A stretch of 57,967 nt of DNA from Anaerolinea sp. (GCA_020725765.1 DYEI01000123.1:1-57967), one strand, 5' to 3'; positions 20,651 through 30,357 are shown, counted from the first letter of the stretch. Notes: generated by a model from the letters alone, not told the origin. A program made the numbers and translations.

Positions 20651-21068
20651 GGGGATGACAGGTCTCGACAGGGAGGGCTGGCCCGCGATTGCAAGCCGAG
20701 GTGCCCCAACCTCGCAAATCAGGGGCAAAACCACAAGTGCCAACAGAGCACAGACTCCGGCGTACGCCTACGCCATGGCTGCCTAACGGCAGCTAGGGCG
20801 CAGACGGCGCCCGATCACCTAGCGTGATCACGCCCGCCCCGGGTGCGCCCGGCTGGCTCGGGGACGGGCGCCAGGCACAGCAGGGTGCGGCCCGTCGACG
20901 CCGATAGGCGGGCTCAAGCCGCAGGCGATGAGCCGGCGGGATCGGCTGGCCCTCCGGGAACTCGGTCGGTGGAGGTCCGGGAGGGTGAGACCCAAAACGC
21001 CGACTAAGCTTGTAGTACATCGCTGGTCGAACTTTCTGGACGCGGGTTCGATTCCCGCCATCTCCACC
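20651..21068 (+). ncRNA. ssrA: tmRNA (SsrA)
   Basis: The 5' end GGGGATGACAGGTCTCGAC pairs with the 3' end CATCTCC-A-CC (G3:U70). T arm GGACGCGGGTTCGATTCCCGCC. The tag ORF GCC AAC ... GCT GCC TAA (20739-20786) encodes ANRAQTPAYAYAMAA*. Confidence 0.92.
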
Positions 21069-21070
21069 TC

Positions 21071-26189: not shown

Positions 26190-27296
26190 TCATGCCGGCT
26201 GGCGCCGGTAGGCTGGCGTGTAGAACGGTGTCTTGACCACCCTGGCCCGCTTCGCCTCACCGCGTATCATCACCTGTACCTCGGTGCCGATGGCAGCCTG
26301 GGTCGGTGGCACGAAGGCGAGGGCAAGGTACTTGCCAGGCGTTGGCGCATACATCCCTGTGGTCACCTCCCCGATGGTACGCCCATCGAGGGCCACCGCA
26401 TAGCCGTGCCGCGGCACCCCCCGATCAACCATCTCGAGCCCCACCAGCTTCCGCTGCGGGCCCTCCAGCCTGACCTTCAGAAGGGCGCCCCGACCCACAA
26501 ACTCCCCTTTCTCGAAAGAGACCGCCCAACCCAATCCGGCCTCCAGCGGGTTGATCGTCGCCGAGATCTCCTGCCCGTAGAGGGGCAGCTTTGGCTCGAA
26601 GCGAAGACTGTCGCGCGCGGCCAGGCCAATCGGCTTGAGGCCAAGGGGGGCGCCGGCCTCCATAAGGCCATCCCACAGCAGAGTCGCTTTCTCGCGAGGG
26701 AAGAAGAGCTCAAAGCCGTCCTCGCCGGTATAGCCGGTACGTCCGATGAGGGTCGGCACGCCCGCCACCTTGCTCTCTGTAGCCCGATGGAAGGGCAGCT
26801 TGTCCAGTTGTGCCGGGGTCAGCTTCTGGAGGATCGCCTCCGCCTGCGGCCCCTGCAGCGCCAGCATGTACGTCTCCTCAGAGACGTTCTCTACCGTGGC
26901 CTGAAAGCGCCCGACATGGTAGCGGAACCAGAGGGTGTCCTTCTCCACGTTGGCGGCGTTGATCGCGATAAAGTACCGGTCGGGCAACCGGTATACAAAC
27001 ACATCGTCAACGACTCCGCCGTCGTCGTAGCAGACGAGCGAGTATCGGGCCTCGCCGGTCGCCATGCGGCTGATGTCCGCAGTCAGCACGTGCTGCAGGA
27101 AGGGCAGCGCGTCCGGGCCCCTGACCACGATCTGCCCCATATGATCGATGTCGAAGAGTCCCGCTGCCCGGCGGACGGTATGGTGCTCCTCGATGGGACC
27201 TGTGGGGTACTGCACGGGCAAGAGCCAGCCCGCAAAGTCGATCATCCGGCCGTTCAACGCGACGTGGCGTGCGTAGAGCTCTGTCCTCCTCGCCAT
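26190..27296 (-). CDS. gcvT: Aminomethyltransferase (glycine cleavage T protein)
   Basis: RTELY..H...G....FAGW..P..Y and the rest of the GcvT layout. The ATG at 27296 is preceded by AAGGAGG. Confidence 0.93.
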   Translation of the reverse strand: MARRTELYARHVALNGRMIDFAGWLLPVQYPTGPIEEHHTVRRAAGLFDIDHMGQIVVRGPDALPFLQHVLTADISRMATGEARYSLVCYDDGGVVDDVFVYRLPDRYFIAINAANVEKDTLWFRYHVGRFQATVENVSEETYMLALQGPQAEAILQKLTPAQLDKLPFHRATESKVAGVPTLIGRTGYTGEDGFELFFPREKATLLWDGLMEAGAPLGLKPIGLAARDSLRFEPKLPLYGQEISATINPLEAGLGWAVSFEKGEFVGRGALLKVRLEGPQRKLVGLEMVDRGVPRHGYAVALDGRTIGEVTTGMYAPTPGKYLALAFVPPTQAAIGTEVQVMIRGEAKRARVVKTPFYTPAYRRQPA

Positions 27297-27365
27297 GCGT
27301 TCCTCCTTGACCTCTACCAGCATGGTACCGAGCGGCCCCGTTGCCGCCTCTGCCCTGACCCTTCG

Positions 27366-28382
27366 TCAGTAGGTCAGGCTCGCCATGACGAGCGCAGTAG
27401 CCGATCTGGCTTCCGCTGCGGACAGCGGACGAGGGTAGTTGTAGAGGGGACCGCCCGGCCGCTCGTTGTAGAAGGGGCGGTTACATCCGGAGCACCCCGA
27501 CGTGCGGTAAGCTTCTCCCGTGTGGAGCACCTCCTCCAGGGTTCCGGCGGGTAGGCCGTAGGAAGCTATCTCGCCCTGCGCTGAGTAGCGGAACCGTTCC
27601 GCCCGCGCCAGGCCGTTCACGATGAGGTACCGCGCCACCTGGCAGCGCCTGTAGCTTACTTCCGAGGGCGGCTGCTCGCGCTCCAGCGCCGTGCCTGGGA
27701 CTGGCGTAAAGGCAAAAAGCGCTGTCAGGACCCCCAGGTCGTGCATCTCCTGGAGAAGCGCTGCAACCTCAGCTTCGGTCTCACCCAGGCCGACGATAAT
27801 GTGCGTGCCTACGCGCCCGGGATACGCCCGCGCCGCCTCTCGCAGGAGGGCAAGGGTCTTCTCCCAATGGCGCCCTTTCACCCGATTATACACATGCTCG
27901 CTGGCCGCGTCCAATGCCAGGGTCACGCGCTCGACCCCGAGGGCAAGCAGCTCGCCCATCTCCTCCCGACGACTCACCCGCGTGCAGACGCACAGCGGGA
28001 GTGCCGCCTCTCGCCGGATGGCGCGGACGACCGCGCGCGTACGGGCAGCGTGACCGGGGGCGGCGACAACCTGAAGGCAACAGCGAACGATTGCACCCGA
28101 GGCATAGGCGGGCGCCAGTCGCGGGACGACCGTCGCCAGCGGATACTTCGGCCAGATGACCCTCGAAAGCTGGTCCGCTGGCGCACTGCTCGCCCGCGCC
28201 TGGGCGCAGAAGGCACAATCGAGCGAGCATCGCTCACCCAGCATGAGGTACACCGTTGTCGGGGGTACCTCCATGCGAAGCGAGGCCAGCCCGAGGACCG
28301 CTGCCGACCCCGAGGATACGCGCACGTCCAGACCGTCATCCGGCGCCGTGTCGCCTAGAGTACACAACATTCGTCGCCCCAT
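27366..28382 (-). CDS. Radical SAM protein (BioB/LipS-like; candidate split lipoyl synthase subunit)
   Basis: 338 aa with the CSLDCAFC (CxxxCxxC) cluster motif, GLGETEAEV, and a C-terminal CSGCN cysteine pair. It lies directly upstream of gcvT on the same strand. Confidence 0.6.
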   Translation of the reverse strand: MGRRMLCTLGDTAPDDGLDVRVSSGSAAVLGLASLRMEVPPTTVYLMLGERCSLDCAFCAQARASSAPADQLSRVIWPKYPLATVVPRLAPAYASGAIVRCCLQVVAAPGHAARTRAVVRAIRREAALPLCVCTRVSRREEMGELLALGVERVTLALDAASEHVYNRVKGRHWEKTLALLREAARAYPGRVGTHIIVGLGETEAEVAALLQEMHDLGVLTALFAFTPVPGTALEREQPPSEVSYRRCQVARYLIVNGLARAERFRYSAQGEIASYGLPAGTLEEVLHTGEAYRTSGCSGCNRPFYNERPGGPLYNYPRPLSAAEARSATALVMASLTY

Positions 28383-29236
28383 TCGATGCGCAGCCCCAGC
28401 CGCTGCGCCGCCAGGACTGCGGCCCGGGCCGGGTTCACGATGCTGTTTAGCCCTACCTCCACTGCGAGGGGATCGAGTTGCTCGCGATACTCCCCGCCCG
28501 GACGCATGCAGCCAAGGCGCACCGGCACGTCAGGAAAGCGCACCCGGGCCTCTGCGAGGAGATCGACAACCTCACCGATTGATGGTGGCTCGCACCCGGC
28601 ATACGCCGTCCCTGGCGTAGGGATGAAGACGATGAGCACCAGCGCCTCAGCGCCCAGGGATCGAAGGAGCTCCAGAGCGCGCCGCTCGCCCCGAACCCGT
28701 CCCCTATAGAGCCCGATGGTGAGGTGCGGCACGACGCGAGCGTGCCGGCGCAGCATCTCGTAGCAGGCCACATAGTCGCCTACGGTCTTGTCGAGGCCGT
28801 ACACCTCCCGGATCGTGTCATCGTCGCCCACAAAGTCAAAGCTGATGACGTGTGCATAGGGCCGGATGGCCAGCATGGTAGCCTCATCGATCAGACCCAC
28901 ATGCCAGTTCAGGCGCCTGCCCGCAGCCAGCCGCGCGATCTCCTCGAGGCGGGGCAACACCGGCACGCGCCCCTCGCGATCGCAACCACCCGAGATGAGC
29001 AGGCTGCGCGCCCGGCCAAGTGCGGGATCGTCGAGTGTGCGCATCCCGGCCAGATAGTGGCCGTTACAGTGTGCACACCGCAGCGCACAGACCGTTCCGG
29101 TGACACTCACCGCCAGCGTGGCCGAGGGTCGCTCAAAGCGGATGTGCGGCTCAAAGAGCTCTTGCCGCACCTCCCACGCCCTGCGCCAGAGCGGATGCAC
29201 GGCGCGACTCTCCAGATCATCTCCCATGGCCTGCAT
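28355..29236 (-). CDS. Radical SAM protein (candidate split lipoyl synthase subunit)
   Basis: 293 aa with CALRCAHC (CxxxCxxC), SGGCD, and a C-terminal ECC. It overlaps the next radical-SAM gene by 28 nt. An alternative start lies at 29227. Confidence 0.6.
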   Translation of the reverse strand: MQAMGDDLESRAVHPLWRRAWEVRQELFEPHIRFERPSATLAVSVTGTVCALRCAHCNGHYLAGMRTLDDPALGRARSLLISGGCDREGRVPVLPRLEEIARLAAGRRLNWHVGLIDEATMLAIRPYAHVISFDFVGDDDTIREVYGLDKTVGDYVACYEMLRRHARVVPHLTIGLYRGRVRGERRALELLRSLGAEALVLIVFIPTPGTAYAGCEPPSIGEVVDLLAEARVRFPDVPVRLGCMRPGGEYREQLDPLAVEVGLNSIVNPARAAVLAAQRLGLRIEWGDECCVL

Positions 29237-29349: not shown

Positions 29350-29427
29350 GCGCGCGCCGGCGCGGCGGAGATCAGGGTGGTCCGCCTTCCATGCGCCGGT
29401 CAGCACGGAAAAGAGGTAGCCTCCTTC

Positions 29428-30357
29428 ATGGTCTGGGACGGTCTAACCTACTACCTGTTCCGCGCTGCAGGTGCACTCGCGCCGCACATACCGGCATCTG
29501 TCGGCTACCGTCTCGCAGAGCGGCTCGGTGCGCTGGTCTACCGGGTGTCTCCGCTGCGCTGCCACGTAGAGGACAATGTCTCGCACGTCCTCGGCGAGCC
29601 CTCGGGCTCGCCGCGCGTGAGAGAGATCGCCCGACGCATCTACGGCAACCAGGTCAAGAACTACTTCGACCTCCTGCGCGTGCCGGCTCTGGACGAGGAA
29701 GATATCCGCACCAGCGTGCGCACGCTGGTCGGCCTGGAGCACCTCGATGCAGCCCTCGCGCGCGGGCGTGGCGTCGTGCTCACGAGTGCCCACTTTGGCA
29801 ACTTTGACCTCGCGGGACAGATACTGGCGCTGCGTGGCTACCGGGTCATCGCCATCGCCGAGCATCTGCGGCCCGAGCGGCTGTTCGACTACGTCCGCCG
29901 GGCCCGGGAGAGCCATGGCTTGTCCTTCATCCCAATCGATAGCTGGCTGCGCCCGGTCTTCCGCGCCCTGCACGGCAACGCGGTTGTGGGCTCGGCCCTC
30001 GACCGCAACGTCACGGATGCAGGGCGCCTCGTCGATTTCCTGGGCGGGCCGGCTCGGGTCCCAGACGGGTATGCCAGGCTTGCCCTCCGCACCGGAGCAG
30101 GGCTCGTCGTAGCCTTCTGCCGACGCTCGCCAGACAACGCTTTTCATATCGTCGTCGAGCCCGAGATACCGCTCGAGCGCACGTCTGACCCGGAGCGCGA
30201 CGTCGAGAATGCGGTACGCAAGGTGCTCTCCATCTTTGCCAGGTACGTGTCTCGCTATCCCGATCAGTGGGTCTACTTTCAGCCGCTGTGGCTCCCGGAT
30301 GGGGGCATCTCCCTCCCAGGGGGCCACCGGCGCGGTGAGACCATTCGTAGTGGTTGA
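29428..30357 (+). CDS. Lysophospholipid (HtrB/PatA-like) acyltransferase
   Basis: Contains the TSAHFGNFD (HX4D-like) motif and has an LPLAT/lauroyl-acyltransferase family layout. Confidence 0.7.
   Translation: MVWDGLTYYLFRAAGALAPHIPASVGYRLAERLGALVYRVSPLRCHVEDNVSHVLGEPSGSPRVREIARRIYGNQVKNYFDLLRVPALDEEDIRTSVRTLVGLEHLDAALARGRGVVLTSAHFGNFDLAGQILALRGYRVIAIAEHLRPERLFDYVRRARESHGLSFIPIDSWLRPVFRALHGNAVVGSALDRNVTDAGRLVDFLGGPARVPDGYARLALRTGAGLVVAFCRRSPDNAFHIVVEPEIPLERTSDPERDVENAVRKVLSIFARYVSRYPDQWVYFQPLWLPDGGISLPGGHRRGETIRSG

Follow-up and report, generated by a model that had tools for sequence, protein, structure and literature searches.

The 57,967-nt contig DYEI01000123.1 of the Anaerolinea sp. assembly GCA_020725765.1 (hereafter the window, meaning the whole stretch) carries on its minus strand two overlapping genes for radical S-adenosylmethionine (SAM) proteins, followed on the same strand by the gcvT-gcvH-gcvPA-gcvPB genes of the glycine cleavage system. 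A first-pass annotation, made from the sequence of the window, had proposed that the two proteins form a split lipoyl synthase of the LipS1/LipS2 type. The analysis presented here makes it very probable that the two genes are lipS1 and lipS2, encoding a BioB-like two-protein lipoyl synthase that heads the gcv operon of a genome without LipA. The features of the locus, with model scores in bits, are as follows.

28355..29236, minus strand: lipS1, 293 amino acids (aa) from 29236; putative LipS1 radical-SAM sulfur insertase, predicted C6 step
27366..28382, minus strand: lipS2, 338 aa from 28382; putative LipS2 radical-SAM sulfur insertase, predicted C8 step
28355..28370, minus strand: lipS1/lipS2 overlap, probably 16 nt, read from the sequence
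27297..27365, minus strand: lipS2-gcvT spacer, 69 nt, holding the gcvT ribosome-binding site AAGGAGGA
26190..27296, minus strand: gcvT, aminomethyltransferase; PF01571 and PF08669; TIGR00528, 378.7 bits
25765..26160, minus strand: gcvH, lipoyl carrier; PF01597; TIGR00527, 144.8 bits
24403..25764, minus strand: gcvPA, glycine dehydrogenase subunit 1; NF001696, 641 bits
22913..24406, minus strand: gcvPB, glycine dehydrogenase subunit 2; NF003346, 741 bits
29251..29279, minus strand: sigma-70-like promoter candidate TTGATG-17-TAGAAT, from a consensus scan only; just upstream of lipS1, in a divergent intergenic region of 140 bp

Family membership, cysteine ligands and fold

Both open reading frames (ORFs) were confirmed on the minus strand, and their products belong to the two LipS families. 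The 293-aa protein matches the NCBIfam equivalog NF053742 with 276.9 bits (cut-off 230) over model positions 1-268 of 268, and it is the only protein of the genome to match this model. The 338-aa protein reaches 350.7 bits on the equivalog NF053743 (cut-off 270), over positions 1-292 of 292. PF04055 was found in LipS2 with 54.7 bits; in LipS1 it remained below threshold, and no Pfam match was obtained for this protein. The motifs listed in the first-pass annotation are all present in the translations, namely CALRCAHC (C50/C54/C57) and ECC (residues 289-291) in LipS1, and CSLDCAFC (C52/C56/C59), GLGETE (198-203) and CSGCN (297-301) in LipS2.

Alignment with homologues from Chloroflexota, Bacillota and Bathyarchaeia showed that C50/C54/C57 (CX3CX2C), C243, C290, C291, H171 and H112 of LipS1 are invariant (25-47 homologues), as are C52/C56/C59, C102, C297, C300 and H194 of LipS2 (17-98 homologues). 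The LipS1 and LipS2 proteins of the archaeon Thermococcus kodakarensis (TK2109 and TK2248) were reportedly characterized by Jin in 2020. Mutagenesis identified C230, C276 and C277, together with the conserved H159, as auxiliary-cluster ligands of T. kodakarensis LipS1, and C85, C276 and C279 as those of LipS2 (Neti 2022, PMC9585515). Judging by order, spacing and invariance, these residues probably correspond to C243, C290, C291 and H171 of the LipS1 and to C102, C297 and C300 of the LipS2 encoded in the window. The substrate of the archaeal enzymes is octanoyl-lysine on the H protein, and the ESVKAASD motif that surrounds the lipoyl-lysine K63 of the window GcvH, as read in its sequence, is identical to the octanoyl-peptide assay substrate (PMC9585515). 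In both systems, moreover, the synthase is a pair of BioB-like radical-SAM proteins that combine a CX3CX2C motif with a three-cysteine auxiliary site, LipS1 has a conserved histidine, and the genome lacks LipA. They differ in that the window is bacterial (Anaerolineae) and its two genes adjoin, overlap and precede gcvTHP; in T. kodakarensis the locus tags are not consecutive.

Neither protein is a canonical LipA, as had already been judged from the sequence. The two LipA models (TIGR00510 and PRK05481) gave LipS2 29.9 bits (cut-off 310) and 35.1 bits (cut-off 203) and did not match LipS1; this identity was therefore rejected at scores of at most 35 bits. LipA, which inserts sulfur at C6 first, combines CX4CX5C near its N-terminus with RSSY near its C-terminus, auxiliary-cluster motifs that are embodied in the NCBIfam LipA models. 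Its overall reaction is that of LipS1/LipS2: radical SAM chemistry, at the expense of an auxiliary cluster, introduces two sulfur atoms into an octanoyl group carried by a protein. LipA does this as a single protein, whereas the window encodes two.

An AlphaFold2 model of LipS1 built on an alignment (pLDDT 94.4) has the biotin synthases 8vdw and 1r30 as its closest folds, followed by HydE and PylB, with LipA (5exk) at rank 44. The model predicts a BioB-like radical-SAM barrel, in agreement with the description of LipS proteins as BioB-like in the literature. For LipS2, a phmmer search of solved structures returned only a weak match, to the V. parvula biotin synthase 8vdw; no solved-structure match was found for LipS1, and no LipS structures were found in the PDB.

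The likeness to biotin synthases has to be weighed, since the pair, or LipS2 alone, could be a divergent biotin synthase or another radical enzyme of the BioB/HydE/PylB type whose position next to gcv genes is incidental. The fold ranking of LipS1 and the weak phmmer match of LipS2 agree with this explanation, as do the 61.3 bits of LipS2 on the bioB model TIGR00433 and the absence of any BioB over the cut-off in the genome. However, TIGR00433 requires 225 bits (LipS1 scored 16.7), while both LipS equivalog cut-offs were passed. No bioD was found over the cut-off either, and bioA-like aminotransferases were sub-threshold only, so a biotin synthase would have no dethiobiotin to act on. Moreover, the linkage to gcv genes recurs in two phyla with two different gene orders, and the anticorrelation in distribution is with LipA (see below). 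We therefore give the biotin-synthase explanation hardly any weight and regard the pair as LipS1/LipS2. The organism itself looks like a biotin auxotroph. An assignment to HydE/ThiH/PqqE-type subfamilies, the clustering that the first-pass annotation had named as contrary evidence, was not seen: no such model came near its cut-off, and PylB and other radical-SAM models were far below theirs too.

Lipoate genes of the genome and distribution of LipS and LipA

The genome, that of an uncultured Anaerolineae bacterium, is a 4.58-Mb metagenome-assembled genome (MAG) of 570 contigs with a completeness of 97.6%, in which no LipA was found over the cut-off. A lipB gene (198.5 bits, cut-off 155) lies beside fmt on contig C366, and an Lpl(AB)-type ligase is encoded on contig C276. 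These are the only two LplA/LipB-type catalytic domains of the genome; none is encoded on the window contig, in line with the earlier remark that the window holds no lipoate or octanoyl ligase. The absence of lipA and the presence of an octanoyl transferase elsewhere, both proposed for checking in the first-pass annotation, were thus observed. The lipoyl clients comprise four E2 acyltransferase genes and two GcvH-type genes. Because no LipA was found, LipS1/LipS2 is the only recognizable lipoyl synthase of this organism, whose demand for lipoate is large.

The ligase gene on C276 has neighbours of its own (L120:7829-11594). A second, divergent GcvH-like gene, with its lysine in MESGKW and a TIGR00527 score below the cut-off, is followed there by the Lpl(AB)-type ligase-like gene, a gene for a NarI/HdrE-like membrane protein and an HdrD-like gene (Fer4 and two CCG domains), which together make up a carrier, a ligase and a membrane heterodisulfide-reductase-like module.

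The synthase families of the window are the same as those of the sHdr-associated sLpl(AB)-LipS1/LipS2(-LipT) pathway (Tanabe 2023, PMC10332631). In that pathway the ligase gene is adjacent to the synthase genes and the partner carrier is LbpA, whereas in the window neither a ligase gene nor a recognizable lipT accompanies lipS1/lipS2 (none of the flanking acyltransferase, GT4 and mobB genes encodes an FAD oxidoreductase), the carrier is a canonical GcvH, and the genome also carries LipB. Given the C276 genes, where a divergent GcvH-like protein, an Lpl(AB)-type ligase and a membrane module of the HdrE/HdrD kind are encoded side by side, one could propose that LipS1/LipS2 is dedicated to an LbpA-like carrier and that GcvH and the E2 subunits rely on lipoate scavenged by the Lpl-type ligase; the pathway is indeed LbpA-specific in Proteobacteria and Aquificota (bioRxiv 10.64898/2026.10.01.755906). 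According to the same preprint, however, this specificity resides in the ligase, not in LipS1/S2. In addition, it is the canonical gcvH (144.8 bits on TIGR00527), rather than the divergent copy, that accompanies lipS1/lipS2, LipB is kept although there is no LipA to use its product, and the nearest family member has lipS1, lipS2 and lipB side by side. Dedication to an LbpA-like carrier is therefore improbable in our view, although less so than a biotin synthase, and we favour a LipS1/LipS2 synthase acting on GcvH. The preprint adds that GcvH and E2 continue to be served by canonical pathways in bacteria possessing the sLpl-LipS1/S2 route, a statement that does not hold in the genome of the window.

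The distribution of LipA and LipB was tallied in a sample of 41 genomes of the class, and synteny was surveyed at about 100 loci. LipS2 alone was found in 15 of the class relatives, LipA alone in 20, both in four and neither in two, so that 35 of the 41 carry exactly one of the two synthases; as kin are not independent, these counts represent a pattern, not a statistic. LipB is present in 7 of the 15 relatives that have LipS2 only. An even sample of the phylum Chloroflexota contained LipS2 in 7 of 151 genomes, which agrees with the 4.5% reported for LipS1/S2 in this phylum (62 genomes, 35 of them without LipA; Tanabe 2023, PMC10332631).

Gene order, overlap and transcription

The glycine-cleavage genes lie directly downstream of lipS2 on the same strand, where the first-pass annotation had placed them; Pfam and NCBIfam models identify all four. 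The best gcvT start, at 27296 behind AAGGAGGA, leaves the gap of 69 nt that had been described, while an ATG further upstream (27323) would reduce it to 42 nt. No terminator-like site was found in the 69-nt gap, again as noted before.

With the longest ORFs, starting at 29236 (lipS1) and 28382 (lipS2), the two genes overlap by 28 nt. This earlier value stands for the longest starts, but the probable overlap is 16 nt, because in a genome of the same genus the long lipS2 form is interrupted by a stop at codon 4, and only a 334-aa form of LipS2, starting at 28370, is on public record by exact look-up. The true lipS2 start is most likely 28370. Neither the 293-aa LipS1 nor the 338-aa LipS2 was found there in this way. 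The start of lipS1 may be 29227 instead of 29236, since the Shine-Dalgarno-like GGTGAGG is better spaced for it. The ATG of lipS2 sits within the GAA-TGT (Glu-Cys) codons of the invariant C-terminal ECC motif of LipS1. Most of the bacterial lipS1-lipS2 pairs examined (loci L010-L114; Chloroflexota and Bacillota) have an in-frame lipS2 start candidate at which the overlap with the lipS1 stop is 16 or 4 nt, which suggests conserved translational coupling and indicates that lipS1 and lipS2 of the window are probably coupled in this way.

Bacterial LipS1/LipS2 genes are known to neighbour H protein and lipoate ligase genes from a genome-neighbourhood analysis (Neti 2022, PMC9585515). The linkage to the gcv operon, on which the first-pass annotation had built a guilt-by-association argument, is thus real, but as an argument it is not new. 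The genes lipS1 and lipS2 are adjacent at 47 of the 98 loci surveyed, and the nearest named loci belong to Anaerolineae MAGs. The order lipS1-lipS2-gcvT-H-PA-PB is shared by eight or more further loci of Chloroflexota (L012, L037, L044, L051, L052, L072, L087 and L092), with variants at L010, L040 and L041. At the last two, both in Chloroflexota MAGs, lipS1-lipS2 is followed by about 1 kb of unidentified sequence and then gcvH-gcvPA-gcvPB, and two divergent GcvT-like genes (32-37% identity) lie downstream on the opposite strand. Some 14 Bacillota loci show the order gcvT-H-PA-PB-lipS1-lipS2-lpl. In the LipS2 tree, the gcv-linked groups of Chloroflexota and Bacillota form separate clades (SH-aLRT 89 for the former). 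The Bacillota operons, which occur in anaerobes (Desulfosporosinus, Desulfitobacterium and Thermincola), are like the window in joining LipS1/S2 to a complete gcv set and in keeping the lipS1-lipS2 overlap. They differ in that the synthase genes lie behind gcvPB instead of in front of gcvT, that a ligase or transferase gene (lpl/lipM) follows lipS2, where the window has none, and that their LipS2 proteins fall in a clade apart from that of the window. The closest locus outside the genus (L036:1686-4300; Anaerolineae MAG H111_74, genome G003) has lipS1-lipS2 followed directly by lipB and no gcv genes.

Upstream of lipS1, on the plus strand, lie a lipid A-type acyltransferase gene (29377..30357) and a GT4 glycosyltransferase gene; since the acyltransferase gene runs on the other strand, the minus-strand block begins with lipS1. 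It is most likely that lipS1-lipS2 is co-transcribed with gcvT-gcvH-gcvPA-gcvPB. Alternatively, lipS1/lipS2 may merely adjoin the gcv genes, with gcvT-gcvPB transcribed from a promoter of their own. A promoter-like match (TGGACG-17-TATAAT, 10/12) inside lipS2, at 27913..27885 on the minus strand, could supply these genes with a second transcript, and the close relative at L036 keeps lipS1-lipS2 without gcv. An internal promoter is compatible with read-through, however; the 69-nt gap is free of terminator-like sites, and same-strand linkage is kept in eight other Chloroflexota loci, the gaps between lipS2 and gcvT being 1-108 nt across this gcv-linked group (seven other loci). Separate transcription thus appears unlikely, albeit the least improbable of the alternatives weighed here, and we retain co-transcription.

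Searches upstream of lipS1 and of gcvT with Rfam gave no match at the gathering threshold or at E<=1, so a glycine riboswitch was not found there. At the other end of the operon, mobB lies 146 nt beyond gcvPB. Elsewhere, the window contains a tmRNA gene at 20651-21069 on the plus strand (RF00023, 146 bits, full length) and tRNA genes at 475-547 and 761-834.

Proposed route of lipoate synthesis

Several points weigh against a LipS1/LipS2 synthase as the operon-borne and only lipoyl synthase of this organism. The correspondence with the Thermococcus ligands was drawn from order, spacing and invariance and is a probable one. Because of the promoter-like site within lipS2, gcvT could have its own transcript, and co-transcription is therefore only probable. 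A lipA gene may conceivably lie on unassembled DNA of the 570-contig MAG; two genomes of the same family (G002 and G004, about 91-92% complete) show neither LipA nor LipS2, a warning that absence calls in MAGs can fail. Finally, enzyme activity and expression at this locus are predictions from sequence. In G002 and G004 themselves, lipoate synthesis could have been lost, or the genes could have been missed by the assembly.

The route that we propose begins with GcvH, whose K63 would most likely be octanoylated by LipB from octanoyl-acyl carrier protein, or else by the Lpl-type ligase, with octanoate or lipoate in free form as its substrate. Whichever enzyme octanoylates GcvH would also act on the lipoyl domains of E2. 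Here the likely donor system differs from that of T. kodakarensis, in which a heterodimeric ligase (TK1908/TK1234) takes this part. By analogy with the T. kodakarensis enzymes, LipS2 would then use SAM-derived radical chemistry to place a sulfur onto C8 of octanoyl-lysine, and LipS1 would add the second sulfur at C6, completing the lipoyl group. The auxiliary [4Fe-4S] cluster of each protein would be the source of the sulfur that it inserts, and the same pair would have to serve the four E2 subunits as well. Co-transcription of lipS1-lipS2 with the gcv genes would cause GcvH and its maturation enzymes to be made together, so that the supply of synthase is matched to that of the carrier.

We slightly favour the broader proposal that, in this Anaerolineae lineage, LipS1/LipS2 has taken over the housekeeping role of LipA completely, with a hybrid LipB-LipS2-LipS1 route making lipoate de novo for GcvH and the four E2 subunits. 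If this hybrid route is true, GcvH would be the first protein served by the synthase, because the synthase genes lead the gcv operon.

The family itself is already characterized (Jin 2020; Neti 2022; Tanabe 2023) and reviewed (PMC13692748), its linkage to GcvH is published, and NCBIfam equivalogs exist. The Chloroflexota gene order, with the synthase ahead of gcvT, is not spelled out in the papers on LipS1/S2 consulted here, and we did not find the pairing with LipB in the absence of LipA discussed, tabulated or tested there; LipS1/S2 has been tabulated with Lpl, LipM, LipA and LipT, not with LipB (Tanabe 2023, PMC10332631). This pairing is a modest extension of the published pathway combinations.

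The analysis gives a functional name to two genes for which, as the first-pass annotation had anticipated for such genes, the public record of the sister genome says only 'radical SAM protein'. It also explains how lipoate may be synthesized by an Anaerolineae bacterium that lacks LipA and has four E2 genes of 2-oxoacid dehydrogenases besides its glycine cleavage system. The near mutual exclusion of LipS2 and LipA, together with gcv linkage in separate clades of two phyla, supports bacterial LipS1/S2 as a possible general lipoyl synthase, beyond the role of an LbpA-specific accessory of sulfur oxidizers.

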